64,000 nucleotides of DNA from an uncultured Bacilli bacterium (GCA_934098665.1 CAKOOO010000002.1:20374-84373); one strand, 5' to 3'. Positions 20,302 to 52,657 are shown, numbered from the stretch's first letter. The notes: a model not told the origin generated them from the letters alone. Translations and numbers: made by a program.

Positions 20302-20329
20302 AAAAAAATGATGAAATATTTCATCATTT
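20302..20329 (-). terminator. rho-independent terminator of surface protein gene A
   Basis: Perfect palindrome aaatgatgaaa-ta-tttcatcattt followed by a U-run on the minus strand. Confidence 0.65.
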
Positions 20330-22739
20330 ATTCTACCACAAAAGGATTAGTATATGAGCCATCACCTGAAGATATTGTGGTGCCAGGTTTTAAAGATATC
20401 GATGGTCGCACACCCCGCACGTTGACCACGAGGTTGTTGTTCCACCCACCGGAGTCCACCGCCCCGACGGCGGCGTAGCCGTTACCGTTGAGGAAGCTGT
20501 TGGGAGAACCTAACAAAACATATTGTCCACTGTTAAAGTAATGACTACTTCCATAACCAGCTAAACTTAATTCTGGTACTGTTAATAATCCTATTGGATA
20601 TTTTAACCTTGCTTTTGCATTATTTACACTAAATCTATCTGTTTCATTTGCACATAATAAACTTTTATTACTTGTACTATTATTTTTAAAATATAAAACT
20701 TGACTACTTGTACTTCCGTTTGGATTCCAACCAGTTGAAGATAAATTAGTTATGGTTCTATCATTACAGAATACTGTATCTTCTAGTTTATTTGTATAAC
20801 TTGTCATATTGTTTTTATACCAATTATCTATATATGCTTTTATTGTACTATCATCAGTATTTACATCATCTGCATATAACATTTCATTTAAAGCGTCTTC
20901 TACTGATTTTCCTCCAGTTAAGGTTATGTAATATGAAGCACCATTACTAATATAATATACATAATAAATTGATGTACAACTATTACCATTTGTTAAGCAT
21001 GTATAATGATGGGTATTTACATTACTACTATTAGCAATAAATGTATCTGAATTTATTGTTACTGTATCGCTTAATGTATATGTCCCATTTGTATATGTAA
21101 ATGATGAGCCAAATACATAATCTTGATTTGCTAATGTTGTTCCATCTGTTACTCCTCCAGATAGCGAGTAATAATATATTATTGTTCCACTATTTGAAAC
21201 TATATAATAGGGATTAGAACAAGATGTTGATGTGCTATTACATGTATATCTTCCAGATAATGTACTTGATGAAGACACTGTTATATTACTAGGGTTTACT
21301 AAATTGTAAGTACCATTATCATATGTTACACCAGTGCCAATTACTTTTGTACCAACTAAATTTACACGATTAATTATTTTCTTAGATGAATATGCATATA
21401 CTTTATTTTCATTATACATATATCCTACATATGCTGGTGAATTATATTTACTATTAAATGCACTTGTTCCTATTATTGTATCTGTTCCTGTATTATTACA
21501 TGATTTTATTACATCTCCTACTGCTTTGCCAATACTAAATACTACATTATCATTATTTTTTGATACACTACTATCTTTAGAATATTTTACGGTAATAACA
21601 TCTGAAGTTGTAAGACCTTTAAGAGCAATTGTTCCTGAATCTGTAAACTTACCAAGTGATGTGGTACCATTTATAAATTCAGCTTTATCACAGCATGTTT
21701 CTGATGATACAGAGTAATTTAAATAATAATCTCCAGCTTCTTTTACACTAAATGTTATTGTTCCCGTTTTACCATGGTCATGATTTGTACTTGTCCATGT
21801 TTTAATTGTTTCATCAAATGTATATGGATATGTAGCATCATTTGTTACATTTATATATTCATCTTGATTAATAGGTTCTGTATTGACTATATCTTTTACA
21901 GCACCATTATAAACAATTTTTACTCCACCTGTATCTGTGGTTCTTACTATTTTCCAGCATTTATCTGCAAATAGTACATTATTATTTTCTACATTGCCAG
22001 TATAGTAATATACTTTATTTGCATATTTTGTTGTATCTTCATAATCACTTCCATTATATAGTTTTACATACTCATCACCATTTAAATATTTTCTTGCAAT
22101 TATAGAGTATAAATTCTTTGCATATTCCTTAAAATCACAATCTATATTTTCTACTTTAATATTACCACCAAAGGTTTTACCTATTATAGAGTTATCTTGA
22201 GCTATATTTAGATTATAGTATCTTAAATTAAAGTTCCATGTTTCACTTATACTTGTTTGTGATGTTGTTGTTTCTATTGAACCAGAATAAATTTTTATTT
22301 TACTGCTTCCTGCTAAAGAAACATCGTTAAAACTATTACCTTGATTAGAGATTCCTCTTACAGCATATTCTTTTAAAGTGCTTTGTGATGGTGTATAAGA
22401 AGTGCTTGGAACGTATACTATATCATAAGAACAATATACTGGGGCATCACCTTTTGCATCAAGTGTTAAAGTTAAATTTGAATTACTTTCTACATATGAA
22501 GTATAATCATTTGACGCACTCCCCACATCTAAATCACTTTCATTTATTGCTAATGCTACATTTTGATTTCCACTTGTATTAAATGTATAAAACTTTGTAT
22601 CTATCCTTGAGGTTGCATTATTATTTGTATTTATTTTCATGCTACCAAAAAATGCATAAGATGCACTTACTAATATAATAAGAGCTATTACTGATGCTAT
22701 TATAGTTAATATTTTCTTCTTATTATCACTTTTTTCCAT
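20328..22739 (-). CDS. large surface protein A of the lectin-like paralog family (carries GC-rich variable island)
   Basis: N-terminal signal-anchor KKKILTIIASVIALIILVSASYAFFG. Family motifs CWKIVRTTDTGGVKIVYNG, PAYVGYMYNE, IDNWY, FCNDR, YPIGLLTVPE and GVRPSISLKPG...GDGSYTNPFVVE. Start set at the ATG at 22739, after GAAAGG. Confidence 0.8.
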   Translation of the reverse strand: MEKSDNKKKILTIIASVIALIILVSASYAFFGSMKINTNNNATSRIDTKFYTFNTSGNQNVALAINESDLDVGSASNDYTSYVESNSNLTLTLDAKGDAPVYCSYDIVYVPSTSYTPSQSTLKEYAVRGISNQGNSFNDVSLAGSSKIKIYSGSIETTTSQTSISETWNFNLRYYNLNIAQDNSIIGKTFGGNIKVENIDCDFKEYAKNLYSIIARKYLNGDEYVKLYNGSDYEDTTKYANKVYYYTGNVENNNVLFADKCWKIVRTTDTGGVKIVYNGAVKDIVNTEPINQDEYINVTNDATYPYTFDETIKTWTSTNHDHGKTGTITFSVKEAGDYYLNYSVSSETCCDKAEFINGTTSLGKFTDSGTIALKGLTTSDVITVKYSKDSSVSKNNDNVVFSIGKAVGDVIKSCNNTGTDTIIGTSAFNSKYNSPAYVGYMYNENKVYAYSSKKIINRVNLVGTKVIGTGVTYDNGTYNLVNPSNITVSSSSTLSGRYTCNSTSTSCSNPYYIVSNSGTIIYYYSLSGGVTDGTTLANQDYVFGSSFTYTNGTYTLSDTVTINSDTFIANSSNVNTHHYTCLTNGNSCTSIYYVYYISNGASYYITLTGGKSVEDALNEMLYADDVNTDDSTIKAYIDNWYKNNMTSYTNKLEDTVFCNDRTITNLSSTGWNPNGSTSSQVLYFKNNSTSNKSLLCANETDRFSVNNAKARLKYPIGLLTVPELSLAGYGSSHYFNSGQYVLLGSPNSFLNGNGYAAVGAVDSGGWNNNLVVNVRGVRPSISLKPGTTISSGDGSYTNPFVVE
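20404..20510 (-). other. candidate DGR variable region (VR-A)
   Basis: 107 nt at about 65% G+C (hand count) inside a ~25% G+C gene. It encodes GSP-NSFLNGNGYAAVGAVDSGGWNNNLVVNVRG-VRP. Confidence 0.5.
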
Positions 22740-22764
22740 AACAAACCTTTCTATTATCAATTAA

Positions 22765-22793
22765 ATTATATCATTTTTTTATTAAATTATAAA
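22765..22793 (-). promoter_or_regulatory. candidate extended -10 promoter of gene A
   Basis: On the minus strand, TGATATAAT (22765-22773) with TTTATA 17 nt upstream. It overlaps the 3' end of the ftsW-like gene. Confidence 0.45.
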
Positions 22794-23941
22794 GACATAA
22801 TTTCTCTATTTAATTTATTTTTTGCATTTTCTATTGCTACTCTTTCTGTAACAAAAATCATTAAAACAGCATTAATTGTATAACTTCCTCCATAAGATAA
22901 AAATGGAAGTGGTACACCTGTAAGAGGAATAAGCGCCAAAAGGCCAAATAAATTTATAAATATATGAAGTGCAAAATACCAAAATGTACCATAAGCTAAA
23001 ATACTTGTTCTTAGATTATCACTTCTTTTAGCAATTTTATATATTTTATATAAAATAACTCCATAAATAATAATAACAATAGTTCCTACAATAGAGCCAA
23101 GCTCTTCACAAATAATTGGAAATATCATATCTGTATGACTTTCCGGAAGATATAAATATTTTTGAGTACTTTTTCCAAGGCCTACTCCAAAAAGGCCTCC
23201 GTTTGAAATCGCAATAAGTGCATTACAAACTTGATAACCGCTTTCCTCTTGATAACGACTACATGGATTTCTAAAATTAAGTCTTGATAGTTTATTACTT
23301 GATAAAATATTTCCACCTTTATAAAGAAGTGCAAGTGCTATAATTAATACTCCAACAGTTAATATTTGAACAATTTTTAAAATATTTTTCTTAATCATTG
23401 GTACTGATAAAAATGTTAAAAAGGAAATAGCCATAATGATAGCTCCACTACCCCAGTCTGGTTGAAGTAAAGTAAGTATTGTATAAATACCCGCTAAAAA
23501 AAGTGGTATAAAATATAAAGATAAATTTTTAGTATTTCTTTTAGATAAATTATTATAAAAAACAGACATAAATATAATTAAAGCACTTTTAGCAAACTCT
23601 GATGGTTGAATACTAAATGGTCCTATTTTAAACCAGCTTTGAGCATTACCGGCAATTTTACCTTTAACAAGAACAAATAAAAGTAGCCCTATACATAACG
23701 CAGCATATAAATACGCTAAAAGTTTATATTTTCTTGTGGGAAAAATCAAAATAAAAAAACCTACGAAATAAGAAATAACTAAAAATATTAACTGATGCAT
23801 AAAAAAGTGATTTGAGGCAACATGATATCTTAATAAAGTAGATGCACTCGAAGAAGACCAAATCATAAAAAGGCCTAAAATACACATAAGAGTAACTAAA
23901 AGCAAAAGTAATTTATCTATTTTTCTTATATCCTTATTCAT
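22787..23941 (-). CDS. FtsW/RodA/SpoVE (SEDS) family peptidoglycan polymerase
   Basis: 384 aa, about 10 TM segments. FSIQPSEFAK and PLPFLSYGGS motifs. Confidence 0.85.
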   Translation of the reverse strand: MNKDIRKIDKLLLLLVTLMCILGLFMIWSSSSASTLLRYHVASNHFFMHQLIFLVISYFVGFFILIFPTRKYKLLAYLYAALCIGLLLFVLVKGKIAGNAQSWFKIGPFSIQPSEFAKSALIIFMSVFYNNLSKRNTKNLSLYFIPLFLAGIYTILTLLQPDWGSGAIIMAISFLTFLSVPMIKKNILKIVQILTVGVLIIALALLYKGGNILSSNKLSRLNFRNPCSRYQEESGYQVCNALIAISNGGLFGVGLGKSTQKYLYLPESHTDMIFPIICEELGSIVGTIVIIIYGVILYKIYKIAKRSDNLRTSILAYGTFWYFALHIFINLFGLLALIPLTGVPLPFLSYGGSYTINAVLMIFVTERVAIENAKNKLNREIMSL

Positions 23942-24060
23942 ATAAATATATTACCATTTTTTTTTAAATAAGTAAAATAAATATCAAAATATTTTACAAA
24001 CTATTCACAATTTATTTTTTTTAGTATATCTTATAATAGATACATAAAGGAGGTTTAAAA

Positions 24061-24249
24061 ATGTATTACTACGGAAATAATGGCTATTACCCAACTTCTT
24101 CATATAATCAAACTCCTTACTGTGGTGGCACTTATGCTGGATACTCAAATGGATATGGAATAGGTGCTGCAATATGGATAGTACTTTTCATACTACTAGT
24201 AATAATCATAGGAGCTTGGGGTTTCGGTAACCAAAATATTAATAATTAG
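24061..24249 (+). CDS. YjcZ-like tiny Tyr/Gly-rich sporulation membrane protein
   Basis: 62 aa. Y/G/N-rich N-terminus followed by AAIWIVLFILLVIIIGAW. Strong RBS AAAGGAGG upstream. Confidence 0.5.
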   Translation: MYYYGNNGYYPTSSYNQTPYCGGTYAGYSNGYGIGAAIWIVLFILLVIIIGAWGFGNQNINN

Positions 24250-24269
24250 GAAGGAAACTTCCTTTTTTA
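24248..24269 (+). terminator. rho-independent terminator
   Basis: ggaag-gaaa-cttcc hairpin followed by TTTTTT. Confidence 0.55.
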
Positions 24270-24270
24270 T

Positions 24271-24299
24271 TTGCTAAAATAAACATTTTTTGATAAAAT
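24271..24299 (+). promoter_or_regulatory. candidate promoter of def
   Basis: TTGCTA, a 17-nt spacer, then TGaTAAAAT (extended -10). Confidence 0.5.
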
Positions 24300-24323
24300 A
24301 ACTTTGTCAAAGGGGATGAAGTA

Positions 24324-24875
24324 ATGAGGTTACCAAATATAACTATTCTAGATGAAAAAAATAAAATATTACATGAAATGTCTAAAGAAGTAAAATTTCC
24401 ACTTTCTAAACAAGATGAAAAACTAATCTATGATGCAATAAAATATTTAAAAATGTCTCAAGATGATGATACTGCCGAAAAATATAATTTAAGAGCTGGT
24501 ATGGGACTTGCATTTGTTCAACTTGGAGTTTTAAAAAGAATATTTGTTATAGCAAATAAAAATGAAGATGACTCTTTCGAAGAACATATTATAATTAATC
24601 CTCATATAATATCTTCATCTGAAGAAATGATATATGTTGGTGAAGGTGAAGGATGTTTATCAATAAATAGACCCACTACCGGAATAGTTCCAAGGCATGC
24701 AAGAGTAAATGTTGAATATCAAGATATAAATGGTAATAAACAAACTATCAGAGTTCGTGAGGATATTTCTGTAGCCTTTCAACATGAAATAGACCATTTA
24801 AACGGTATTTTATTTACAGATAAAATAGATAAAAAAGATCCATACAAAGGAAAAGACCAAATGCGTGAAATTTGA
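24324..24875 (+). CDS. def: peptide deformylase
   Basis: Motifs GMGLAFVQ, GEGCLS and HEIDHLNG. Confidence 0.9.
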   Translation: MRLPNITILDEKNKILHEMSKEVKFPLSKQDEKLIYDAIKYLKMSQDDDTAEKYNLRAGMGLAFVQLGVLKRIFVIANKNEDDSFEEHIIINPHIISSSEEMIYVGEGEGCLSINRPTTGIVPRHARVNVEYQDINGNKQTIRVREDISVAFQHEIDHLNGILFTDKIDKKDPYKGKDQMREI

Positions 24876-24882
24876 TCTTTTT

Positions 24883-25920: not shown

Positions 25921-25992
25921 TTTTTAATTATACAACATATTATAATATTTATCTATATAATTAGATTAAAAAAAGTTAGGAATAATTCCTAA

Positions 25993-27249: not shown

Positions 27250-27413
27250 TTTTTCTTTCATCTCCTTATAGTTAGTATAACACACCAAAATAAAAAACAA
27301 AAGTTATTTTACTACAAAAATTTTTATATAAATATTTTATTTTTTGTAACATTTTGACATCTTCTGTCGAAACTATTGATTAATAATTTTTTTTATATAT
27401 AATAACTTTTGAG

Positions 27414-27695: not shown

Positions 27696-29486
27696 TTAGC
27701 TCTCTACTACATATGGATTATTATAAGTTCCATCACCGGAAAGTTTAACATCTTTTGAAAGTGAAATAACTGGTCTAACACCTAATATCATACTATCCTC
27801 GTTATTTACCGTTTTTTCATAAAAGGAAAAACTTAAGCCAAAAACCATAGCGGCTCCTTCATCGTTAGCAACATCTGGTGATCCAATTAAAATGCCATCT
27901 GTATCTTCAACTGTATAATAAAATAAATAAAATGCTCGATTTTCTTTTCCAGATCCAGATACTGCACCAGCCATTGCTACTTCGTCTGCGGTTATTAAGC
28001 CTACTGGATAAGTTAATGCACCATTTCCACTACTTGAACCTACTGTAAATTTATCACTTGCATTAGGACATGTTAGAACTGGCTTTTTATTTGCGACTAG
28101 TCTTCCATATGCTCCATAATAAATAAACTCATTATTTGATGTAAATGGGTTTATCTCACCATAATCACCATTTTCACTTCGTGAAGCACTTCTATCATAG
28201 CAAAATGGACTATCAGCTATTAATTTTGACGTGCTCTCATCAGTATAAAGCGAAGTTGTTGTATACCAATTATCAATATAAGTTTTTATTGCACTATCAT
28301 TTGTAAGACCATGTTGCTTACCTATTTCATATTTATATCCTACATATTCTGGTTTGTATACATTAGTGTTAAAATCACTTTTTCCAATATATATATTATC
28401 ATTTAGCATTACTACCTTTTGATCTTCGGTTGGAGCTGTTGTACCAGAATAAATCATTCGTACACTGCCATCACCATTTATTCTTATTATTCGCCAGTAT
28501 ATATCGTCACCTATATTCCACAAATATGAACAGTTATAGTTATAGGAACTAGAAGAATTACATTCTTCTAGAGAAGTATATTTTTTATATGATGAAGAAC
28601 TGGCTGAATAATATCCACGTACTGGACCATTAGATGAATATTTTCCAAACTTTATCCAGTTATTATCTACCGCACCTCTAAAATAGTAAGATGTTCCTTG
28701 GTCGTCTTTAGCTGCATACATGCCATCATTTGTTGTTGCCACTGCTGTAAAATCAGGACTTTCTTTTGTTTCAATTGCATTAGCACCACCATTTTTTGCA
28801 AGTATAATATCTTTGGCTTTTGGCACTTCTCCAACATTGCAATTATTATTTTCTACATATATTTTACCTGTAAATGATTTATTACCTAGTTGTGCTTGGT
28901 CTACATTCAAATTATAATATCTACCTGTTATATTTATATTTTGCACTACACTTGTACCTTCACTTGTTATTGTAGCATTTTTTACAAGGGTTTTCTTTGC
29001 TCCAACAGTTGTTGTCTTCGGTGTCCAAGTGCTATCATAAGCAAAATTTGTTTCACTTGCAAAGCTATTTGTTCCACTTGGACTAGAAACCTCTAAAGTA
29101 ATTTCTTTAGTTGCTCCATTTGTTACTGCAACAGTGCTTCCATATATTTCACTAGAAAGATCATATTCATACACTACATCATATGTACATGTTGTTATTA
29201 CATCTGGTACTCCAGTAAGATTTACTGTAAGTGTAGCGGTATTTTCGGCAGCTAGTCCAGTATTACCCTTAAACATTCCACTTGTAGGTACTATTACATT
29301 TAAATTTGCACTTGTTGCTATAAATGAAGTATCTCCTATTGTACTTGCATGAATATTTACTGCTACCTTATTTTCAAGATTTACTGTAAACATACCAAAA
29401 TATGCAAACGATGCACTAATTAAAAGCACTAAAAGAAACATTCCAGATATTATCCAACCTATATTTACTTTCTTTTTATTTTTCAT
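27696..29486 (-). CDS. surface protein D of the lectin-like paralog family
   Basis: N-terminal anchor GWIISGMFLLVLLISASFAYFG. YWRIIRINGDGSVRMIYSG, PEYVGYKYE, IDNWY, FCYDR, YPVGLITADE and GVRPVISLS...GDGTYNNPYVVE. Confidence 0.8.
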   Translation of the reverse strand: MKNKKKVNIGWIISGMFLLVLLISASFAYFGMFTVNLENKVAVNIHASTIGDTSFIATSANLNVIVPTSGMFKGNTGLAAENTATLTVNLTGVPDVITTCTYDVVYEYDLSSEIYGSTVAVTNGATKEITLEVSSPSGTNSFASETNFAYDSTWTPKTTTVGAKKTLVKNATITSEGTSVVQNINITGRYYNLNVDQAQLGNKSFTGKIYVENNNCNVGEVPKAKDIILAKNGGANAIETKESPDFTAVATTNDGMYAAKDDQGTSYYFRGAVDNNWIKFGKYSSNGPVRGYYSASSSSYKKYTSLEECNSSSSYNYNCSYLWNIGDDIYWRIIRINGDGSVRMIYSGTTAPTEDQKVVMLNDNIYIGKSDFNTNVYKPEYVGYKYEIGKQHGLTNDSAIKTYIDNWYTTTSLYTDESTSKLIADSPFCYDRSASRSENGDYGEINPFTSNNEFIYYGAYGRLVANKKPVLTCPNASDKFTVGSSSGNGALTYPVGLITADEVAMAGAVSGSGKENRAFYLFYYTVEDTDGILIGSPDVANDEGAAMVFGLSFSFYEKTVNNEDSMILGVRPVISLSKDVKLSGDGTYNNPYVVES

Positions 29487-32423: not shown

Positions 32424-32430
32424 AACAAAC

Positions 32431-33912: not shown

Positions 33913-34005
33913 ATGAAAAAAAAGACAAGAAAAAAAGTAGCATGGATACTTATAGTACTTATGCTTTTATCAGTAGTTGCAAGTATCATAGCATACTTTC
34001 TATAA
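33913..34005 (+). CDS. candidate 30-aa membrane peptide (MKKKTRKKVAWILIVLMLLSVVASIIAYFL)
   Basis: AAAAGGAAG RBS. TTGAAA-17-TGgTAAATT promoter at 33859-33887. Confidence 0.3.
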   Translation: MKKKTRKKVAWILIVLMLLSVVASIIAYFL

Positions 34006-34743
34006 TAAGTTTAATAAATTTAAGAACTTATCTTGAAAAAGAAAAACAATAAATAATGAAGAAACCAAAAATGGGCCAAAAGCAACTTCATTATTTTTTT
34101 GTAGTTTTAAGGAAGCTACACTATATGGAAGTGCTAAAAAAGAAGCAAGAACAAGTGATATTAATGAAAGTTTAAAATTAAGTGCATAACCAATAACAAA
34201 AGAAAGTTTTATATCTCCCCCACCAAGGCTCTCTTTTTTAAAGGCAAAATCTCCGATTATTTTAATTAAATACATTATTAAAAATAATGCTACTCCACTT
34301 ACTAAACTAATAAGTGCTTCTTTGTAACCAAAATAAATAAATTTTAAGATAAAAAGTAATACACTACTTATTATAAGGGGGCTATCTAAAATAATATAGT
34401 AATAAAAATCAGTAATAAATATTAGTATCATAAGACTTGCTAAAACTAAAAGTGCATAATGCATGTAACCAGTAAAAAAATGGTAGCAAAGTGCAAATAA
34501 AATGCCTGTACTAATTTCTATAATTATATTAACCATACTAATTTTCTTATGACAATATCTACATTTACCCTTTAAAAAAATGTATGAAAAAATAGGTATT
34601 AAATCATACCATGCTAAAATATGATTACATTTATCACATTTACTACGAGAAAAAAAGGCATCTTCACCTTTAGGAAGTCTTTTACCTATAACAAGGTAAA
34701 AAGATCCTAAAACTGTGCCTATTATAAACATAATTACTTCCAT
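34000..34743 (-). CDS. prepilin peptidase (A24 family, PilD/ComC-like)
   Basis: Cys-rich CDKCNH...CRYCHKKIS, a GGGDIKL active-site region, and a polytopic membrane topology. Confidence 0.85.
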   Translation of the reverse strand: MEVIMFIIGTVLGSFYLVIGKRLPKGEDAFFSRSKCDKCNHILAWYDLIPIFSYIFLKGKCRYCHKKISMVNIIIEISTGILFALCYHFFTGYMHYALLVLASLMILIFITDFYYYIILDSPLIISSVLLFILKFIYFGYKEALISLVSGVALFLIMYLIKIIGDFAFKKESLGGGDIKLSFVIGYALNFKLSLISLVLASFLALPYSVASLKLQKNNEVAFGPFLVSSLFIVFLFQDKFLNLLNLL

Positions 34744-34751: not shown

Positions 34752-36317
34752 CTATAAAATACTGTTGTAAACTTGGAACATTGGGATAATTACCGCAAGA
34801 AGTATACCACCAACAATTATAGCCAAGAATACAATCATAATTGGTTCTATTAAACTCTTTAATGAATTAATAATATTTTTATGCATAACTTGATAATAAT
34901 CACTTACTTTTTGCATCATATCTGCAAGTTGCCCGGTTGATTCACCAGTTACTATCATATAATATGCAACATCTGGTACAGCCCAGTGATCTTTAAATGC
35001 ATCTGATATTTTTTCACCTTTAACTATATTATCAATTGTTTTATACATTACTAATCTATATATTTCATTTTTAGTTATTTTACTTAAAATACCCATACTT
35101 TCAGTAATATAAACATTATTTCTTAAAAGTGAGGCAAATGTTTTTGCAAATATAGTAATTTCATTATATATAATAATATTTTTTATAACAGGAATTTTCA
35201 TCGTAACTGTTTGAACAAAAATTCTAAACATTTTAACCTTTTTATACATTACATAATTTGCAAATATTAATAAAGCAAAAACTAATATAACTGTTATAAT
35301 ATTATTTGTTAAAAAATTACTAAAATTAATAAGCCATTTTGTAAGTCCTGTTACCGCAACATCCATTTGGGCATAAATATCATTAAACTGTGGTACAACA
35401 TATAAAACAATAAATGTTATTACCGCAATAGAAAAAATCATTATAATAAGTGGATAAGTAAGAGCACTTTTCATTTCTTTTGTAGTATTATGAACTTCAG
35501 TATAATACTGGGCCATATCCTCAAGGGTCTCTTGAAGTGTTCCCGTAGCTTCAGCGGCTTTAATCATATTTATAAGAAGTGCTGGAAATAAAGTACCTTG
35601 TTTTGCAAGAGCATTTGAAAAAGTTTCTCCAAGAGCAAGTTCATAACATATTGCATCATAAACTCTTTGTCTTGTTTTATTTTTCATTTGTGATGTAAGT
35701 ATTTTCATACCTTCATTTAAGGTAATACCTGCTTTTAAATAAGTAGAAAGCTGAGTTAAAAAGAATATTAAATCTTTTTTAGACATTTCTCTTGAAAAAA
35801 TAGAATTTTCATTATATAAAAAGTTAATCATTTTTGAGGTTTTAATATCATATACTTCATAACCTTTATTAAGTAAAAATGCATTTATATCAAGTTTTGA
35901 AAGGCCAGATATAGTTCCTGAAAATATTTGATTATCACCTTTTGCATTTCTAACTGTAAATCTATATACATTTGGAGTTTTACTTCGAGTTGCTCCACCC
36001 ATTCTTAAATCATTTTCTAAAGCAATTTTCATTTTTTCATATTTTTTTAATGTTGCATTGCTATACTTATATACTTTTTGCCTTTTGATAGTTTTACCTT
36101 TAGTTTTTTCATAAAGGGCCTCTCTTTCATCTGCTGTTTCAATTTTTTCTTTTTTAGATCCTACCGCTTTTTCTAAATTCCATGCAAAAAAGTTAAATAA
36201 AATAACCCACATGTCCCAAAGTAAAAACTTTATTCCCTTTAAGCTATAAAATGGAATGTAAATAAAACTTAATAAAAAGTCAACTAAAATATTACTCTTC
36301 TTTTTTTCTGTATCCAC
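34752..36317 (-). CDS. type II secretion/type IV pilus platform protein (GspF/PilC/ComGB family)
   Basis: Two T2SSF repeats (LTQLSTYLKAGITLNEGM... and FAKTFASLLRNNVYITESM...). GTG start 7 nt after AAGGAG. Confidence 0.85.
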   Translation of the reverse strand: MDTEKKKSNILVDFLLSFIYIPFYSLKGIKFLLWDMWVILFNFFAWNLEKAVGSKKEKIETADEREALYEKTKGKTIKRQKVYKYSNATLKKYEKMKIALENDLRMGGATRSKTPNVYRFTVRNAKGDNQIFSGTISGLSKLDINAFLLNKGYEVYDIKTSKMINFLYNENSIFSREMSKKDLIFFLTQLSTYLKAGITLNEGMKILTSQMKNKTRQRVYDAICYELALGETFSNALAKQGTLFPALLINMIKAAEATGTLQETLEDMAQYYTEVHNTTKEMKSALTYPLIIMIFSIAVITFIVLYVVPQFNDIYAQMDVAVTGLTKWLINFSNFLTNNIITVILVFALLIFANYVMYKKVKMFRIFVQTVTMKIPVIKNIIIYNEITIFAKTFASLLRNNVYITESMGILSKITKNEIYRLVMYKTIDNIVKGEKISDAFKDHWAVPDVAYYMIVTGESTGQLADMMQKVSDYYQVMHKNIINSLKSLIEPIMIVFLAIIVGGILLAVIIPMFQVYNSIL

Positions 36318-40206: not shown

Positions 40207-40587
40207 CTATAATTTTCTTGAGTTTACGACATATTGTTTACGTAAATTAAACTTATCACATGTTATTAAATACAAATTATTTTCATCAAAATTAAAACTA
40301 TATTTTTTACCTTTTTCTATATATTCAAAACTTACTATTTCATATTTATAAATTTTTCCATAGTACTTTAAATAGATAATATCATTTATATTTAAATCAA
40401 ATAAATCATTAAAATATGCATTATCACCATAACCGGAATGTCCTAAAATAAATAATACACTTTTTTCATTATTTGGCATAATGCTTTTTTCATGAAGTTT
40501 TATATTATCACAAAGCGTTGAAGTGCTAGAAAAAGACTTTTTAAAATTAATTTTAGGGATTATTAAAGTAAGTTTATTATAATTCAT
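40207..40587 (-). CDS. sortase catalytic domain, separated from its anchor and start codon by a homopolymer frameshift
   Basis: LGHSG (His), LYLITCD (Cys) and RKQYVV (Arg). The same frame stays open upstream, encoding KKSKIIILILVIITVFSSQ, but has no start codon. See findings. Confidence 0.6.
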   Translation of the reverse strand: MNYNKLTLIIPKINFKKSFSSTSTLCDNIKLHEKSIMPNNEKSVLFILGHSGYGDNAYFNDLFDLNINDIIYLKYYGKIYKYEIVSFEYIEKGKKYSFNFDENNLYLITCDKFNLRKQYVVNSRKL

Positions 40588-40675
40588 TTTATCAAAAAGA
40601 GTATTTTCATAATATATTTCTTTTTTTATTTGGGAAGAAAAAACTGTTATTATTACTAAAATTAGAATTATAATT

Positions 40676-41953
40676 TTACTTTTTTTTTACACATATTTTT
40701 ATTCCCACAAAAAGCAAAAGAGTTACAAGTATTATTAAATATTTATAAGGAAATGAAAATGTATTTTCAAATGTAATATCCTTTATATTATTTTCACTAT
40801 CTATATCATCATTATTAAAAATATCATTACTAATAAGTTCATTATTAATATTTTTTAAATTACCATTTTCTTCATTATTATCATTATCAATATTTTCATT
40901 ATTATCATTTTCTAAATTACCATTTTCATCATTATTAATATTTTCATTATTTTCTTCATTTTGAATAACCTTTTTATTTAACTTTAATTTAATTAAAGAG
41001 TCATTTATATTAACATTTTCATTAAAGTCTTCATAAATATCATCACCCTTTATAAAGATATTATAAGTTCCTTCAAATAATTTAAGATTTATCATCCCAT
41101 TTTCATTAGAGCAATATTTTTCATCATTAATATTTATACATTTATTTACAAGCTTATCTTCATCATAAACTAAAATACTTGTGCTTGTTTTATCACCATT
41201 TATTTCCATTACATACTTTTTATCGTTAAAATTAGTAGTTGAAAAAAGTGTATTACTACCATTTGTAACTAAAAATTCAAAAAGTGGTTCTGCTATAGGA
41301 AGTACTTTTTTTCGAAAAACAAGTTTATGCTTACCCTCTTTTCCTTTAACAGTTAATTTATCATTTATAATATTTACTTCAAGGTTATCTTCATTATCAT
41401 ATAAATAAAAATTATCTAAATAATCAAACTGAAATTCTTTTATTTCACCTGGCTCTATATTAACTGTGTTATTCCAAAATGAAGGACCTTTTATAACTGA
41501 AAAATATTTATCTTTTATTTTCTGATAAAAATCTTCGTAAATTTCATATTTTTCTTTAGTATTTGGATAGCAAAAATAAAACTCTTTTTCTGGATATAAA
41601 TATTCCCATATAAGTCTTTGAGTTAAAGAGTGATATACTCTTTCATCAACGTTTAATTTATCCCTTATTTCCATAAAGGCAAAATATAAATCTTTTATAT
41701 CTTTGGAATAATTACTTTTTTCATAAGTAATTTTTTTATAATTTTCTACATTTGTATCAAGCATATCTCTTGTTTGGGGTACTAAAAAAAATGTTTCTCT
41801 ATGTTCAAGCCAAACATAAGTAAGTTCATACATATTTCCATCACTTGAACATAAATTTTGATGAGTTGTATTTATTAAACTTGACACACTTATAGCGTGC
41901 ACATTTTTAGATAAAGTAAACAATATAGCCAAAAATATTAAATATTTTTTCAC
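40676..41953 (-). CDS. secreted surface protein with a sorting-signal-like C-terminus and an N/D/E-rich spacer
   Basis: Signal peptide MKKYLIFLAILFTLSKNVHA (GTG start after GAAAGGAAA). C-terminal hydrophobic stretch plus a KKK tail. TQRLIW resembles the Gln motif of thioester-domain adhesins (weak). Confidence 0.65.
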   Translation of the reverse strand: MKKYLIFLAILFTLSKNVHAISVSSLINTTHQNLCSSDGNMYELTYVWLEHRETFFLVPQTRDMLDTNVENYKKITYEKSNYSKDIKDLYFAFMEIRDKLNVDERVYHSLTQRLIWEYLYPEKEFYFCYPNTKEKYEIYEDFYQKIKDKYFSVIKGPSFWNNTVNIEPGEIKEFQFDYLDNFYLYDNEDNLEVNIINDKLTVKGKEGKHKLVFRKKVLPIAEPLFEFLVTNGSNTLFSTTNFNDKKYVMEINGDKTSTSILVYDEDKLVNKCININDEKYCSNENGMINLKLFEGTYNIFIKGDDIYEDFNENVNINDSLIKLKLNKKVIQNEENNENINNDENGNLENDNNENIDNDNNEENGNLKNINNELISNDIFNNDDIDSENNIKDITFENTFSFPYKYLIILVTLLLFVGIKICVKKK

Positions 41954-42031
41954 TATTATTTTCCTTTCTATATTTCCTATCACCAAATATAAAAAGTTTT
42001 TACGAGCAATTTAAATATAACAAAATATTTT

Positions 42032-42585: not shown

Positions 42586-42612
42586 AAAAAAAATGATAGA
42601 TTACCTATCATT
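42586..42612 (-). terminator. rho-independent terminator of surface protein gene C
   Basis: aaugauag-guaau-cuaucauu hairpin plus a U-run on the minus strand. Confidence 0.6.
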
Positions 42613-44731
42613 AATTAATAATATATGGTTTAGTATACGAGCCATCTCCTGAAAACACTATAGTTTCAGGTTTTAGTGATATGACAGGTTTTACACCAAT
42701 AGATGCCATTGCTGTTCCTCGTGATACAGTATCGTATAACGTTGATTGCATTAAGATTCTTTGATATAATACTGGTGATTGTAGCCATATACCATATCCT
42801 GTATATAAATAATGTTTTTTTGCTTCCACATCTTTAGTTGCCAAATGTGCTTCTGGTGCAGAAAGAAGTCCAACTGGATATGTTAAAGCCCCATTACCAT
42901 TACTAATGTTAACTGTAAATCTATCATTTATATTTTCACAAAAAAGACTATAAGTAACATCGTTATTTTTAAATTTAAATGAATCACCTGTTGTTTGTTT
43001 ACTTAATGACCAACTACCAAGATCAGTATTGCTTCTATCATTACAATATATTGTATCTTCTAATTTATCTGTATAGTTTATCATATTATTTTCATACCAT
43101 GCATCTACTACTTTTTTTATTGCACTGTCCTTTTTATTAACATCATCCGCATATAACATTTCATTTATTGCATTATCTATTGACTTACCATTAGAAATTT
43201 TTATTGCAGAAATATCACTAGTGCCCTTATAATTGATATAATATATAGAACTACAAGTGTTTGATGAATTATAACAAGTAAAATGATAATCATCAATATT
43301 ACTATAATTTGAACGCCAAGTTTTTGCATTAACAGTGATAGTATCCGTTAAAACATATTTACCATTTGTATAAGTAAAAGATTTACCAAAAACATAATCA
43401 ATATCATAATAAGATCCATTTGTTATACCGTCTTTCAAAGTAAAATAATTAAATTGCCTACCGCTTGTTGAAAAAATATATCTTACTTTTTTACAAGAAG
43501 TTGAGGAACCATCACTACAAATATATTTTCCAACAAATGTACTTAAATCACTACTTGTTGTAATATTTACAGAAGTTGGATTTACAAGACTATATAATCC
43601 ATTACTATATGATACTGAGGTTCCAAACATAGTAACATTGCTTGATGTCATATAGTTCATAATTTCATAGTAGTTATCTTCATATGCAATATTATACATA
43701 TACCCAGCATATGCTAAAGAGTTTTGTTCTTCATTATAAGGAGAAAAAGCAATTTGAGCATCATAATATGTATTATTACAAGATTTATATTTATTAATAG
43801 TTTTTCCAAAACTAAATATAACATTATTTCTTGTTCCTGAAGTATAACTTTGATTTCGAGTAAATACTACTTTAATTGTATTTGAGGTAGATAAATTATC
43901 TAAAATAATTTGTCCAGAAATATTACCAACATAGCTACCAAGTAATTCACTATCTTTATAAATATTTATATTCATATCATTTATATTTGCATAAGTTGAA
44001 ACGTCATAATTTAATGCGAAGTCACCATTTTCTGGAACATTAAATGATATTGCTGAACTATTTGTTCCTGTATTTGTACTTGTCCATGTTTTATTTGTTT
44101 CATCAAAAGTATATGGGTATTGTGAATTATTTATTAAATTTTTGTATTGCGATAGTTCAAATAAATTTAAATCGGCAACATTTTTTTGGCTACCATTATA
44201 AATCATTTTAACTCCACCAGTACCTGTAGTTCTTACAATTTTCCAACAATACCCACCAAAAAGAACATTATTATTTTCTACAGCTCCATTAAAGTAATAT
44301 ATATTATTTGCATAATTTGTTGTATCCCCATAATCTGCACCATTATAAATTTTTACAAAATTATCATTGTCTTGATATCTTTTTGCTATTGTATCATATA
44401 GTTTGGCACTATAATCAAAGTATAAATAGCATTTATCACTTCCTATAAAACTAAAACCCACTACCCCGTTTACATTATCATAACTAATTACTTCACCATT
44501 ATTTTCACAATGTGTTTTTTCTTTATTTAATGTATAATTTCCTTTGGGTATATCTTTTGAACTTGATTTTGTATAATCAGTTGCACCATCTTCTTTTATC
44601 ATTATAGATAATTTTTCTTCTTTAATTGGGTTATTTTTACTTAAACTATTTTGCTTAAATTTATAGGTTAAAATTAAACTTAAAATCCCTACTCCCAAAA
44701 ATACGAACAACACTATTTTTTTCTTTTTCAT
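42611..44731 (-). CDS. surface protein C of the lectin-like paralog family
   Basis: MKKKKIVLFVFLGVGILSLILTYKFKQNS anchor, nearly identical to gene B. CWKIVRTTGTGGVKMIYNG, LAYAGYMYN, VDAWY, YCNDR, YPVGLLSAPE and GVKPVISLKP...GDGSYTKPYIIN. ATG at 44731 preferred over the track GTG. Confidence 0.8.
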   Translation of the reverse strand: MKKKKIVLFVFLGVGILSLILTYKFKQNSLSKNNPIKEEKLSIMIKEDGATDYTKSSSKDIPKGNYTLNKEKTHCENNGEVISYDNVNGVVGFSFIGSDKCYLYFDYSAKLYDTIAKRYQDNDNFVKIYNGADYGDTTNYANNIYYFNGAVENNNVLFGGYCWKIVRTTGTGGVKMIYNGSQKNVADLNLFELSQYKNLINNSQYPYTFDETNKTWTSTNTGTNSSAISFNVPENGDFALNYDVSTYANINDMNINIYKDSELLGSYVGNISGQIILDNLSTSNTIKVVFTRNQSYTSGTRNNVIFSFGKTINKYKSCNNTYYDAQIAFSPYNEEQNSLAYAGYMYNIAYEDNYYEIMNYMTSSNVTMFGTSVSYSNGLYSLVNPTSVNITTSSDLSTFVGKYICSDGSSTSCKKVRYIFSTSGRQFNYFTLKDGITNGSYYDIDYVFGKSFTYTNGKYVLTDTITVNAKTWRSNYSNIDDYHFTCYNSSNTCSSIYYINYKGTSDISAIKISNGKSIDNAINEMLYADDVNKKDSAIKKVVDAWYENNMINYTDKLEDTIYCNDRSNTDLGSWSLSKQTTGDSFKFKNNDVTYSLFCENINDRFTVNISNGNGALTYPVGLLSAPEAHLATKDVEAKKHYLYTGYGIWLQSPVLYQRILMQSTLYDTVSRGTAMASIGVKPVISLKPETIVFSGDGSYTKPYIIN

Positions 44732-44778
44732 ATACTCCACTTTTTCTCCGTAAATACGGCATATAATTTTCTTATATT

Positions 44779-44901
44779 AGGTAGATTTAAGAAAATTCTA
44801 CCTTGTATTTACGTACCTTACTATTAAATAATACACTATTTTTTATAATTTTTAAAGTCTAAATAACGATTTTACGCATATCTATTTTCTTAAATGTATC
44901 T
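44779..44901. promoter_or_regulatory. invertible-switch copy 1 upstream of gene C, promoter-like segment facing the gene
   Basis: IRL is aggtagatttaagaaaatt (44779-44797). IRR at 44883-44901 matches its complement at 16 of 19 positions. The 85-bp interior is the reverse complement of the interior at 52554-52638. Confidence 0.6.
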
Positions 44902-44968
44902 ACTTTAGGAAAATACGAACAAGGTAATTACTGAGTTTTTTTGATATTAACTTATTTTTTTGTTTTTC

Positions 44969-46629: not shown

Positions 46630-46660
46630 ATTTACTCCTTTACATACAAAAATAGATATG

Positions 46661-46870: not shown

Positions 46871-46924
46871 TATTTATCACTCCCATTTAAGATTATACTA
46901 AAAATAATTATGTTTGTCTACCAT

Positions 46925-47338: not shown

Positions 47339-47398
47339 TATATTCCTCTTTTCTATAAAGACTATAACAAAAAAATTATAAAAAAAATGTCGAAAAGA

Positions 47399-49375: not shown

Positions 49376-49428
49376 ATCATAATCACATCCTACATAATAG
49401 TTTATCATATTTTTTTTATAAAATAAAC

Positions 49429-49572
49429 TTAATTATTCGAAGTGTACGAAATATTTTTAATATTTACACTATCTAATTTAGAACATTTTGCATTTAATAA
49501 AAATACACACATTACTAAAAATAAATAAAATAATATTATAACTCCATAATTTTTAAATAATCTTTTTAACAT
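49429..49572 (-). CDS. 47-aa membrane peptide under a LexA-box promoter (candidate SOS division inhibitor)
   Basis: MLKRLFKNYGVIILFYLFLVMCVFLL... The RBS AGAGGTG lies 6 nt upstream. Divergent from lexA. Confidence 0.4.
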   Translation of the reverse strand: MLKRLFKNYGVIILFYLFLVMCVFLLNAKCSKLDSVNIKNISYTSNN

Positions 49573-49594
49573 TTCTAACACCTCTTTCATTTTT

Positions 49595-49623
49595 ATCATA
49601 ATACAAATGTTTGTTCGTGTCAA
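49595..49623 (-). promoter_or_regulatory. promoter with an embedded LexA (Cheo-type) box
   Basis: On the minus strand, TTGACA (49618-49623), a 17-nt spacer cgaacaaacatttgtat, and TATGAT (49595-49600). The spacer holds CGAAC-N4-ATTTG (49605-49617). Confidence 0.5.
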
Positions 49624-49631
49624 TTAAATTA

Positions 49632-49671
49632 GAAACAAATGTTTGACATTTTACATTTCATATTGTAAAAT
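49632..49671 (+). promoter_or_regulatory. lexA promoter with an overlapping LexA box
   Basis: TTGACA (49643-49648), a 17-nt spacer and TAAAAT (49666-49671). The palindrome gAAAC-AAAT-GTTTg (49632-49645) overlaps the -35. Confidence 0.55.
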
Positions 49672-49687
49672 TAAATTAGATAAGGGA

Positions 49688-50314
49688 GTGATTACTACGG
49701 AAAAATTAACAAAGAAACAAGAAGTAATACTAGAATATATAAAAAAATATACTGCAAAAAATGGATATAGCCCCACTATAAGAGAAATATGTAATGGTGT
49801 TAAACTTTCAAGTCCTGCAACTGTATTTGTTCATATTAAAAATTTAGAGAATAAAGGCTATATTACAAGTACAAATAATAAATTTAGAACATTATCTTTG
49901 CTTGTAGATAATGAATATGATGAGAAAAAAGAAGATGTTGTAAAAGTGCCTTTACTTGGTAAAATTACTGCAGGAAGTCCAATTACCGCAATTGAAACAC
50001 CTAATGAATTTTTTGATTTACCAGCAAGTTTAGTACCTAAAAATGATGAAGTATTTACTTTACATGTTTCCGGAGAAAGTATGATTAATGCTGGTATATA
50101 TGATAATGATTATGTTATTGTCAAAAGATCAAATACCGCTAGAAATGGGCAAATTGTTGTAGCTATGACACTTCAAAATGAAGCTACATTAAAAAGATTT
50201 TATAAAGAAGATGGACATATTAGACTCCAACCTGAAAATGATACAATGATGCCAATAATCTTGCCTGACTGTAAAATATTAGGTATAGCAATTGGTTTAT
50301 ATAGAAAATTATAA
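49688..50314 (+). CDS. lexA: LexA repressor
   Basis: N-terminal winged HTH LTKKQEVILEYIKKY...GYSPTIREI. C-terminal S24 peptidase with GESM and KRF motifs. A GTG start at 49688 is assumed, since the track start lies inside the promoter. Confidence 0.9.
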   Translation: MITTEKLTKKQEVILEYIKKYTAKNGYSPTIREICNGVKLSSPATVFVHIKNLENKGYITSTNNKFRTLSLLVDNEYDEKKEDVVKVPLLGKITAGSPITAIETPNEFFDLPASLVPKNDEVFTLHVSGESMINAGIYDNDYVIVKRSNTARNGQIVVAMTLQNEATLKRFYKEDGHIRLQPENDTMMPIILPDCKILGIAIGLYRKL

Positions 50315-50360
50315 CAAACTAAAAATGTAAGAAAAACTAATTAATTTTTCTTACATTTTT

Positions 50361-52487
50361 TTATTCTATTACAAAAGGATTAGTATATGTGCCATCACCT
50401 GAGGATATTTCTGTCCCTTGTTTAAGTGATATTGAAGGTCGCACGCCACTCGCGCTGGCCACGAAGTTGTAGTGCAACCCACTGTAGTGCACCACCCGGA
50501 CGCCTACGTGGTTGCCGTCAAAGTTGTGGGGAGAACCAAGCCAAACTTCTTGTCCACTATAAAAGTAATGACTACTTCCACTTCCATAACCAGACAATCT
50601 TAATTCTGGTGCTGTTAATAATCCTATAGGATATTTTAATTTTGCTTTTGCATTATTTACACTAAATCTATCTGTTTCATTTGCACATACTAAACTCTTA
50701 TTACTTGTACTATAATTTTTAAATTCTAATGGTGTTGTACTTCCGCCGTCTGGGTTCCAACCTTCTAAACTTGATATACTTCTATCATTACAAAATATTG
50801 TATCTTCTAGTTTATCATCATATTTATCTTTTATATTTTCTTCATACCAACTATCTATATATGCTTTTATAGTACTATCTTTTTTATTTACATCATCTGC
50901 ATATAACATCTCATTTAATGCATCACTTACTGACTTTCCCCCCGTTAAGGTTATGTAATATGGAGTACCATTATAAATATAATAAACGTAATAAATTGAT
51001 GTACAGCTATTACCATTTGTTAAACATGTATAATGGTGGGTATTTACTTTACTACTATTATTAATAAATGTATCGGAATTTATTGTTACTGTATCAGTTA
51101 ATGTATATGTTCCATTATATGTAAAGGATTTGCCAAATACATAATCTTGATTTGCTAGTGTTGTTACATCTGTTGTTCCTCCAGAAAGTGAGTAATAATA
51201 TATTGTTGTTCCACTATATCCCGCTATATACCATAAACTATAACATGTTCCTGTTGTATTTGAACTATTACATGTATATTTACCTACTAAAGTACTAATA
51301 TTAGAACTTGACACAGTTATTGTTGCTGCATTAGTAAGTGTATATTTATTACTTGCATAGGTTGCTCCATCTCCATATGCTTTTTGTCCACTAAAATATG
51401 TATTATTAATTATTGTCTTAGATGAAGATGGATATACTTTGCTTTCATTATACATATATCCTACATATGCTGGTGAGTTAGAATAATTATTAAATGTACT
51501 TGTTCCTATTTGTGAATTCTGTCCTGTATTATTACATGTTTTTATTATACTATTTGCTTTTCCGAAACTAAATATTACATTATTTCTGTTTCCATCTAAA
51601 GGCGGCATTTGTCTAGTATAAACTAATTTTACTACATTTGATGTAGCAAGGTCTTTAAAAACAATTTGTCCAGTTGCTACTCCAGTATATTTTCCTTGAC
51701 TTACATCATCTTTAAATATTTCTACATTTATATAATCAATATAGTCATCCATTGATAAATCATAATTTATTACATAATCTCCGCTTGTTGGTGCCGTAAA
51801 TGATATTGTTGAACTATTTGCTCCTGTATTTGTACTTGTCCATGTTTTATTTGTTTCATCATATGTATAGGGATATGATATATCATTAGTTAAGTTTGTA
51901 TATTCTGACTGATTTAATAAAGTGTAGTCATCTATAGTTGGTCTTCCACTATATACTATCTTAACTCCACCTGTATCTGTAGTTCTTACTATCTTCCAGC
52001 ATTTATCAGCAAATAAAACATTGTTATTTTCTACAGCTCCGTTAAAGTAATATATATTGTTTTCATATGACGTTGTATCTCCATAATCTGCTCCATTATA
52101 TAGTTTTACAAATACATCATCTCTATTATATCTATTTTCAATTATATTGTATAAAGGTGGTACTATTTCATCAAAATATAAGAAACATTTATCTGTACCT
52201 ATAAAAGCAAAAGACACAGTACCTGTAGCATTATCATAACCTTCTATTTTACCATTATTTTTGCAATAACTTTTTTCTGTGTTCAATGTATAATCACCTT
52301 TAGGAATATCCTTTGAGCTTGATTTTGTATATTCTGTAGCACCAGATTCTTTTATCATTATAGATAATTTTTCTTCTTTAACAATTTTATTTTTACTTAA
52401 ACTATTTTGCTTAAATTTATAGGTTAAAATTAAACTTAAAACACCTACAAATAAAAATACGAACAACACTATTTTTTTCTTCTTCAT
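50361..52487 (-). CDS. surface protein B of the lectin-like paralog family (mosaic, carries GC-rich variable island)
   Basis: The N-terminal ~130 aa are nearly identical to gene C. The C-terminal ~250 aa are nearly identical to gene A, apart from the GC-rich island. Confidence 0.85.
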   Translation of the reverse strand: MKKKKIVLFVFLFVGVLSLILTYKFKQNSLSKNKIVKEEKLSIMIKESGATEYTKSSSKDIPKGDYTLNTEKSYCKNNGKIEGYDNATGTVSFAFIGTDKCFLYFDEIVPPLYNIIENRYNRDDVFVKLYNGADYGDTTSYENNIYYFNGAVENNNVLFADKCWKIVRTTDTGGVKIVYSGRPTIDDYTLLNQSEYTNLTNDISYPYTYDETNKTWTSTNTGANSSTISFTAPTSGDYVINYDLSMDDYIDYINVEIFKDDVSQGKYTGVATGQIVFKDLATSNVVKLVYTRQMPPLDGNRNNVIFSFGKANSIIKTCNNTGQNSQIGTSTFNNYSNSPAYVGYMYNESKVYPSSSKTIINNTYFSGQKAYGDGATYASNKYTLTNAATITVSSSNISTLVGKYTCNSSNTTGTCYSLWYIAGYSGTTIYYYSLSGGTTDVTTLANQDYVFGKSFTYNGTYTLTDTVTINSDTFINNSSKVNTHHYTCLTNGNSCTSIYYVYYIYNGTPYYITLTGGKSVSDALNEMLYADDVNKKDSTIKAYIDSWYEENIKDKYDDKLEDTIFCNDRSISSLEGWNPDGGSTTPLEFKNYSTSNKSLVCANETDRFSVNNAKAKLKYPIGLLTAPELRLSGYGSGSSHYFYSGQEVWLGSPHNFDGNHVGVRVVHYSGLHYNFVASASGVRPSISLKQGTEISSGDGTYTNPFVIE
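50437..50537 (-). other. candidate DGR variable region (VR-B)
   Basis: 101 nt at about 62% G+C (hand count). It encodes GSP-HNFDGNHVGVRVVHYSGLHYNFVASASG-VRP, at the same position as VR-A. Confidence 0.5.
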
Positions 52488-52534
52488 ACACTCCTCTTTT
52501 TCCGCATAAGTACGCCATCGAGTTTTCTTATATT

Positions 52535-52657
52535 AGGTAGATTTAAGAAAATTACATAGCGTAATTTCGTTATTTAGACTTTAAAAATATAAAAAAGTAA
52601 TGTATAATTTAATAGTAAGGTACGTAAATACGAAGTAGAATTTTCTTAAATCTACCT
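52535..52657. promoter_or_regulatory. invertible-switch copy 2 upstream of gene B, promoter-like segment facing away from the gene
   Basis: Perfect 19-bp inverted repeats: aggtagatttaagaaaatt (52535-52553) and aattttcttaaatctacct (52639-52657). The interior has TTTAAA-17-TATAAT on the plus strand (52580-52608). Confidence 0.65.

Follow-up and report, generated by a model that had tools for sequence, protein, structure and literature searches.

How many separate means of variation can act on one family of surface proteins, and can two of them meet on a single gene? This question is raised by a 64,000-nucleotide stretch of DNA (the window) from an uncultured Bacilli bacterium (GCA_934098665.1 CAKOOO010000002.1:20374-84373), which encodes four large related proteins, named here paralogs A, B, C, and D, and a small pilin-like one, paralog E. 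An earlier note, made from the sequence alone, had described them as a lectin-like adhesin family with stacked variation mechanisms and a link to a pseudopilus. We consider it very probable that they are a surface-protein family built on a DUF6273 module and varied by switching, by hypermutation of a tip, and by exchange of segments. Below, loci numbered with an L are contigs of relatives from other assemblies, and proteins numbered with a P are homologous proteins. The five members, with lengths in amino acids (aa), are:

20328-22760, minus strand: paralog A, 810 aa as listed; likely true start ATG at 22739.
27696-29486, minus strand: paralog B, 596 aa.
42611-44740, minus strand: paralog C, 709 aa; likely start ATG at 44731.
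50361-52487, minus strand: paralog D, 708 aa.
7088-8074, minus strand: paralog E, 328 aa, with a pilin-like N-terminus.

The ordered motif set on which the family was first proposed is borne out. All eight motifs are present, with their order kept, in the four large minus-strand open reading frames (ORFs), and phmmer confirms the paralogy, with E-values among the four that span 1e-17 to 1e-222 (A-D, 1.5e-222; A-C, 7.8e-143; B-A, 1e-22). The minor pseudopilin named as fifth member is real as well and lies outside the region that the earlier note had assigned to the family; it carries the motifs in degenerate form and matches B at 4e-13. Measured against A, identity falls from 60% in D through 43% in C and 34% in B to 28% in E. 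Alignment reveals one module common to all five proteins, which is contiguous in B and E and split by two insertions in A, C, and D. Paralog A has a signal-anchor helix of the 'SASYAFFGS' type at its N-terminus, a module interrupted by two beta domains, and a tip resembling a variable region (VR). Paralog B joins an A-type N-terminal domain to an uninterrupted module and has neither a G+C-rich island nor a switch in the window, although its ortholog in L064 does have a VR-like stretch. Paralog C has a switch and lacks the VR-like island; D is the only copy in the window in which a switch and a VR-like tip occur together. The family is large, with more than 2,083 clusters at 90% identity, nearly all from human-gut assemblies, and at least 4,351 representatives at 50% identity (E<=1e-3), 177 to 4,905 residues long.

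Structure prediction of the shared module lends support to the term lectin-like. The AlphaFold2 model of E (pLDDT 76.3) matches gut-phage DUF6273 proteins among the predicted viral structures of BFVD (best E 8.1e-5, probability 1.0), and 7 of its top 21 matches are named 'DUF6273 domain-containing'. Two published studies describe DUF6273 as a C-type-lectin-like domain that diversity-generating retroelements (DGRs) target repeatedly and that carries its VR at the C-terminal end (PMC10743442, PMC11792537). The similarity between models supports the identification of the family's module as DUF6273, predicted to have a C-type-lectin-like fold. In the AlphaFold2 model of D (pLDDT 86.8), a membrane helix occupies residues 5-31, and VR residues 654-680 lie on beta-hairpins (648-682). 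A PDB fold search with this full-length model found that its inserted jelly-roll resembles the carbohydrate-binding modules CBM51, CBM35, and CBM86, and also C1q.

Several results speak against so definite an assignment. The inserted jelly-roll was the only part of the full-length D model to find a match in the PDB, with no C-type lectin among the hits, and the contiguous module of E had no significant structural match there. The Pfam model of DUF6273 (PF19789) matched none of A to D at E<=0.1 and reached an E-value of 0.005 in just 1 of 45 homologs. We infer that A to D are adhesins, with a predicted surface location and putative ligand binding. A sequence profile run against PDB chains gave no match, and Pfam and NCBIfam recognised none of the four large proteins. 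A few database homologs do carry a precomputed PF19789 match.

The N-termini of A and B (22650-22740 and 29400-29486) each hold a hydrophobic stretch that ends in SASYAFFGS or SASFAYFGMF. We take these endings to recall the SipW-dependent signal peptides of TasA/camelysin-type proteins, an unconfirmed resemblance; an NCBIfam search gave no match to a SipW-type signal peptide at either N-terminus.

Two of the large genes lie behind an inversion switch, each made of a core between inverted repeats (IRs):

44767-44913, minus strand: C switch; gene-proximal IR 44767-44796, 87-bp core 44797-44883, distal IR 44884-44913.
52523-52669, minus strand: D switch; IR 52523-52552, core 52553-52639, IR 52640-52669.
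44828-44856, minus strand: promoter-like element in the C switch, TTTAAA-17-TATTAT, toward gene C.
52580-52608, plus strand: promoter-like element in the D switch, pointing away from gene D.

The flanks of the two switches are collinear, while their 87-bp cores align solely as reverse complements (score 63 vs 5). The 87-bp segment inverts in nature, and the switches proposed before two genes are confirmed as inverting segments by flipped states between near-identical natural contigs. At one locus recovered from two Hadza samples (L005 and L006), the flanks are 99.1-99.8% identical and the core matches at 87 of 87 positions as its reverse complement; in L002 and L003, the ortholog of C has its core flipped relative to the window. 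We rejected an assembly artefact as the source of these inversions, given that independent assemblies yield clean, IR-bounded reverse complements. Each IR of about 30 bp is itself a palindrome-like site with two 12-bp arms around a 6-7-bp centre, the layout expected of a site for a site-specific recombinase. In a diverged switch (L079 versus L080), the core is flipped and the inner IR arms travel with it, a result that maps the crossover to the 6-7-bp central part of the site. Within the window, no sequence other than the four IRs fits the site consensus well; the remaining matches carry 2-4 mismatches, and about 26 loose matches are expected in a shuffled window. An xerC/D-like tyrosine recombinase adjoins the reverse transcriptase (RT) of a DGR or members of the family in L018, L040, L065-L067, L069, L095, L096, and L101 (7464-8327 in L101), and is no more than a candidate for the inverting enzyme. 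The promoter-like element inside the core has the form TTTAAA-17-TAT(T/A)AT. By its direction C is predicted to be ON and D to be OFF, and among the switch copies scored it points toward the gene in 6 and away in 14.

The tips of A and D form two islands of unusual composition:

20404-20510, minus strand: VR-like island of A, GGTTCTCCC...GTGCGACC; 65% G+C, 19% A.
50437-50537, minus strand: VR-like island of D, residues 654-680; 61% G+C, 20% A.

The rest of both genes has 28% G+C and 41-42% A. The islands fall within G+C peaks at 20341-20550 (69%) and 50375-50583 (65%), and the sole other comparable peak in the window, which averages 24.9% G+C, is a tRNA cluster. AAC-type codons are abundant in both islands and lysine is scarce (0.9% vs 5.7%). 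Across 121 homologs, entropy above 3 bits is confined to the positions of D residues 654-680, with conserved scaffold residues in between and conserved flanks. The tips stand at the C-terminal end of the module, where DUF6273 proteins carry their VR. Between L064 and L065, the VR has 21 differences in 81 nt and the sequence upstream has 1 in 900 nt; the 60 nt 5' of the VR and the roughly 100 nt 3' of it are identical. From the identical position, scaffold, and composition, we infer that the A and D tips are VRs of a DGR. The claim of DGR-like tips in two genes thus stands as to island composition, position, VR-confined variation, and the proven activity of DGRs on relatives described next; it falls short in that the window holds neither a template repeat (TR) nor an RT. 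Scans for A-rich, T-poor islands as TRs mostly re-found VRs on the opposite strand. A degenerate VR/TR pattern run over a genome collection was too strict (length classes; GGG versus GGA) and returned a single chance match, in a Burkholderiaceae contig.

In relatives, the family is a proven DGR target. RTs were sought by tblastn with Bordetella Brt (query 100% identical to the brt gene of AY029185), which detects one in L065 (E 2e-23), immediately after a family member. The same arrangement of target, TR, avd-like gene, and RT recurs in L095, L096, and L101; L011 has an RT match, and L017 a copy of the L065 template. The cassette and the comparisons of TR with VR are:

L065 cassette: target 9368-11134; TR at about 11640-11770; then a 119-aa avd-like gene and a 493-aa RT with YMDD.
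L065, TR vs VR: mismatches at 22 of 33 A sites and 0 of 65 other sites.
L064, L066, and L067, VRs vs the L065 template: 22 A-site mismatches, 0 other; no RT in about 4.7-10 kb downstream.
L033, VR vs the L065 template: 18 A-site mismatches, 0 other.
L095 and L096, TR vs VR: 14 A-site mismatches, 0 other.
L101, TR vs VR: 17 A-site mismatches, 1 other.

Mismatches between TR and VR that are confined to adenines are the defining signature of a DGR, and it is by this signature that the family is a proven DGR target in these genomes.

These cassettes have further features. The RT of this lineage is long, at 484-497 aa (L065:12300-13781, L095:6001-7464, L101:6001-7467), and has LGAMTAQ in place of the usual SQ motif, so that the motif expression [ILVM]GxxxSQ...YxDD misses it; in many homologs its C-terminal part matches Pfam MutS_I (PF01624). 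About 40 nt past the stop codon of cassette-adjacent targets sits a G+C-rich hairpin, its stem of 10 bp closed by a 4-nt loop (L095:4960-4990, L101:5245-5270; for example GTCCGGGAAA-ACCC-TTTCCCGGAC). Downstream of A and D in the window there are only AT-rich terminator hairpins. Between the TR and the avd-like gene lies a conserved non-coding element, GGTGAAATT...AATTGGAAACAGATATAATTCTA...TAGTGTAGGCTATGCTA...TAGCATAGCAATTT (L065 about 11830-11980, L095 about 5520-5650, L101 about 5540-5660, L102 about 300-430), which may be a structured part of the DGR RNA. In L098 (1176-11488), a related RT (P0368, 51% identical) and a bAvd-type gene lie inside a sortase-pilus locus; a 1,018-aa VWA protein is encoded upstream, and SpaA-type pilins with a sortase downstream, an arrangement which suggests that the DGR of L098 diversifies a sortase-pilus tip protein. 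In eight loci (L055, L058-L060, L063, L074, L082, and L083), the large member is accompanied by a second, small gene with the module, which lies about 900 bp downstream and has a G+C-rich tip of its own; the window has no tandem small partner of that kind. The G+C islands found about 900 bp downstream of many members had been considered as TRs and were rejected, being the VRs of this second gene. The first 1,482 nt of L064 are much higher in G+C than the rest of that contig and encode a dockerin-bearing protein, and the assembly may be chimeric.

A further source of variation is visible in the gene bodies, where the mosaic structure attributed to recombination between paralogs proved measurable as a shift of identity along D. 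Its nucleotides 1-270 and the region upstream are 71-93% identical to C against 50-62% to A, while nucleotides from about 900 to the end at 2127 are 73-94% identical to A against 44-70% to C; D has a C-like 5' end and an A-like 3' half. Homologs pair N-terminal domain types with different bodies, as in P0018, with a B-type N-terminus and a D-type body, and L064 and L065 are near-identical genes that differ at their 3' ends. Read from such comparisons, the mosaicism is a historical pattern and not a shown programmed process. P0016 was considered as the counterpart of A and rejected; it has the N-terminus in common but occupies a different locus.

The proposed tie to a pseudopilus holds for E and not for the four large proteins. 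Genes of a pilin-like system in the window are:

6573-7100, minus strand: prepilin-type protein, G|MTMVELIV; above the cut-offs of N_methyl (PF07963) and TIGR02532.
8034-8873, minus strand: pilin-like protein, KG|FVFIETII; weak match to the ComGE N-terminus.
34000-34743, minus strand: prepilin peptidase, PilD-like.
34752-36317, minus strand: PilC/T2SS-F platform protein.

The E gene overlaps a pilin-like ORF on each side in a three-gene operon, which relatives keep between relA and mutS (L087, L088). The N-terminus of E is strongly conserved (KKG|VISISMIYSFFL..., pattern KKG|V/F-I-S). Its leader, KKG|VISIS, is of an ambiguous class III type, having no Glu at +5 and no match to a pilin model. 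A long N-terminal helix is predicted at residues 22-60, followed by a contiguous module without a VR. E is best read as a modular minor pilin bearing the lectin-like module, which it probably presents on a type IV or competence-like filament. Relative to L087, two large paralogous proteins (8925-10583 and 10648-12987, minus strand) are inserted beside this operon; they have no Pfam match and about 250 aa of C-terminal region in common, and the 779-aa member of the pair has YYGIRPVIRT near its N-terminus, which recalls the module motif GVRPVISL.

Next to paralog A, gene order bears on the fate of the DGR cassette. L101, whose RelA is 79% identical to that of the window, has family members, TR, avd, RT, xerC-like, tig, spoVIF, MATE, Post_transc_reg, and relA in that order, whereas the window has A, three unrelated ORFs, Post_transc_reg, and relA. 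This synteny indicates that the cassette was lost or moved in the window strain. The segment in question is:

17271-20286, minus strand: segment between A and relA, with ORFs of 190, 141, and 556 aa and an ortholog of Post_transc_reg.

The 556-aa ORF (17568-19238, minus strand) and the small ORFs at 19250-19675 and 19714-20286 occupy exactly the place that runs from the cassette to MATE in relatives. Two R-x4-H motifs in the 556-aa protein, LRNKLAHGEY and IRNSIAHGNY, look HEPN-like, and the cassette may have given way to a defence-type island made up of the three ORFs. The RT homologs P0338, P0368, P0344, and P0343 were considered as the window strain's own RT and rejected; they come from other species, and their TRs, where present, misfit the VRs of the window.

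Do the tips and switches still work in this strain as we propose? Loss of the cassette would leave the tips of A and D as fossils, with only phase variation and recombination still acting, and much in the window counts in that direction. In L101, L095, and L065, the cassette lies between a family member and the row from the xerC-like gene through tig, spoVIF, MATE, and Post_transc_reg to relA, the place now taken by unrelated ORFs. No TR, RT, or avd-like gene was found in the 64 kb or in 6-10 kb past its ends in matching contigs. Four TRs from relatives fit neither A nor D, the closest leaving 19 of 101 positions unexplained for D, and the A tip is two codons longer than the D tip, so that a single TR cannot serve both and at least two templates are needed. 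The D VR is identical in the window and L001, one VR is common to L064, L066, and L067, which have no adjacent RT, L069 and L070 depart from that VR by only two bases, both next to the variable core, and the VR is unchanged in most pairs of near-identical contigs; in many strains the DGR has little activity or none. However, the survey covers about 80 kb of the genome, tig must be elsewhere, possibly together with the cassette, DGRs that act on remote targets are known, and both VRs retain an open reading frame and the conserved scaffold. That the tips are fossils is a possibility to be taken seriously, if on balance a doubtful one. The switches raise a parallel doubt, since no recombinase gene was found in the 64-kb window or in the 6-10 kb past its ends in matching contigs and the promoter consensus matches occur at the frequency expected by chance in such AT-rich DNA, as they do in shuffled sequence. 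Control might instead come from a fixed upstream promoter that reads through the switch, one orientation forming a terminator or a structure that masks the ribosome-binding site; control of the terminator/read-through type is reported for cwpV of Clostridioides difficile. The sequence upstream of the distal IR (ATATCAAA.AAAC..AGTAATTACCTTGTTCGTATTTTCC) is indeed conserved between C and D. Yet neither orientation of the C or D switch has a terminator-like site, RNA folding predicts leaders that hardly differ between the orientations, since the IRs can pair in each, and the -10-like box T(G)GTAT(T/A)AT stays on the same strand and at the same place in the core even where switch families have diverged. 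We consider a fixed promoter unlikely; with consensus matches at chance level and folds that do not discriminate, a promoter inside the core, with C ON and D OFF, stays a prediction.

What the proteins are for can be questioned in the same way. They could be domesticated receptor-binding proteins of phages, or phage-related decoys, instead of adhesins that bind glycans of a host or of microbes; most known DUF6273 domains come from DGR targets of phages, and the best structural matches are gut-phage DUF6273 proteins and a 'receptor binding protein'. Such an origin seems to us distinctly improbable, as no phage genes surround any copy, the surroundings being core genes, and the proteins carry N-terminal membrane anchors. 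A tblastn search of the module against 50,697 phage records returned zero matches, and pattern and protein scans of viral contigs found no relatives, only one chance match in a high-G+C phage contig. The fusion of the same module to a minor-pilin-like N-terminus in E, within a pilin-like operon, and the prepilin peptidase and platform protein encoded in the window would also allow A to D to be subunits or decorations of a type IV or competence-like filament. This we hold to be very unlikely. The prepilin motif G|F/M-x-x-x-E is absent from A to D, which have a plain hydrophobic N-terminal helix after a Lys-rich start; their genes are dispersed among core housekeeping genes, away from the pilus genes, and no assembly ATPase was noticed in the window. 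On their sequences, A to D are membrane-anchored proteins and not pilins.

Variation of a membrane-anchored DUF6273 family at several levels, the reading we prefer, could proceed as follows. A recombinase, itself presumed, would flip the 87-bp segment at the two sites of about 30 bp, and a promoter-like element facing the gene would turn it ON, as predicted for C, or facing away would leave it OFF, as for D. An RT would copy an A-rich TR with errors at adenines, and the copy would replace the tip of about 27 codons, as shown in relatives; the template for the A and D tips would lie beyond the window or would have been lost, leaving the tips as frozen records of past diversification. Recombination would exchange N-terminal and inserted domains and 3' halves between paralogs and so produce mosaics like D, and E would graft a VR-less module onto a minor-pilin N-terminus. 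The likely outcome in a population would be cells that differ in the subset and the variants of glycan- or surface-binding proteins they make. A bolder proposal, which we consider speculative and unlikely to be right, is that the DGR cassette and the adjacent xerC/D-like recombinase form one 'variation module' for a genome-wide set of lectin genes. If they did, the RT would rewrite many scattered tips in trans and the recombinase would flip the copied 87-bp switches, giving each cell a random subset of individually hypermutated receptors, so that bacteria would have something comparable to a combinatorial receptor repertoire; strains that lack the module at its usual site, like that of the window, would be locked variants.

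Each part of this scheme has known relatives. DUF6273 and C-type-lectin DGR targets (of Faecalibacterium prophages; the 'tentaclins' of phages nd4 and nd12; distantly, BPP-1 Mtd and Treponema TvpA) have the same module fold, a VR borne on C-terminal beta-hairpins of the module, A-poor sequence with AAC-type codons, and, as in the relatives studied here, a TR, avd-like gene, and RT right after the target with adenine-only mismatches (PMC10743442, PMC11792537). In contrast to those targets, the present family is chromosomal, multi-copy, membrane-anchored, and cellular, and sits among housekeeping genes; jelly-roll and repeat domains interrupt its module, most copies are more than 10 kb from any RT, with no cassette in the window, the window proteins are undetected by Pfam DUF6273, and some copies stand behind an invertible switch. 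Such switches include fimS of E. coli and, in Clostridioides difficile, cwpV and the flagellar switches flipped by RecV. The switches of C and D resemble these as short segments between imperfect IRs upstream of a surface-protein gene, with both orientations found in nature and, as in C. difficile, a recombinase gene that is not adjacent. They differ in their 87-bp core, sites of about 30 bp, and 12-6/7-12 layout, in a control mode that we can only predict, and in that one switch has been copied before several paralogs and has diverged with them.

Paralog E alone recalls PilB and PilC of Streptococcus sanguinis, which are modular type IV pilins with grafted adhesive or lectin modules. It likewise has a pilin-like helix and a grafted module, among pilin genes and with a prepilin peptidase present, but differs in having Ser/Thr and not Glu at +5, no pilin model match, and a DUF6273-like module. 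The variable surface proteins of Mycoplasma and Neisseria are multigene families diversified by recombination between paralogs. The present family is similar in having several paralogs per genome, with a nearest relative that changes block-wise along the gene, and differs in that the analysis identified neither silent cassettes nor sites dedicated to recombination.

Each of these mechanisms is already known; their stacking on one gene, D, and in one large family appears to be new. Full-text literature searches that paired invertons or invertible elements with DGRs gave no paper that links both on one gene. Both DGRs and invertible promoters contribute heavily to surface variation among gut microbes; they are usually studied separately, and mostly in Bacteroides or phages. 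Here, one large unannotated family of uncultured low-G+C gut bacteria, which escapes Pfam-based catalogues of DGR targets, would have both mechanisms on the same gene in addition to domain shuffling. Its natural pairs of ON and OFF loci and of loci with and without a cassette could show how switching and hypermutation are coordinated, and what these bacteria need to bind.

The rest of the window describes the host. Almost every gene is on the minus strand, the housekeeping neighbours include mutS, relA, dnaG, rpoD, lexA, tkt, thyA, and glyA, and the spore-coat proteins CotJB and CotJC are encoded as well; the host is a low-G+C (25%), spore-forming gut bacterium. At 40207-41986 (minus strand), a 436-aa protein is followed by a very short sortase-domain protein of 126 aa; the former has a signal sequence, a low-complexity tract rich in Asn, Asp, and Glu, and a C-terminal membrane helix.

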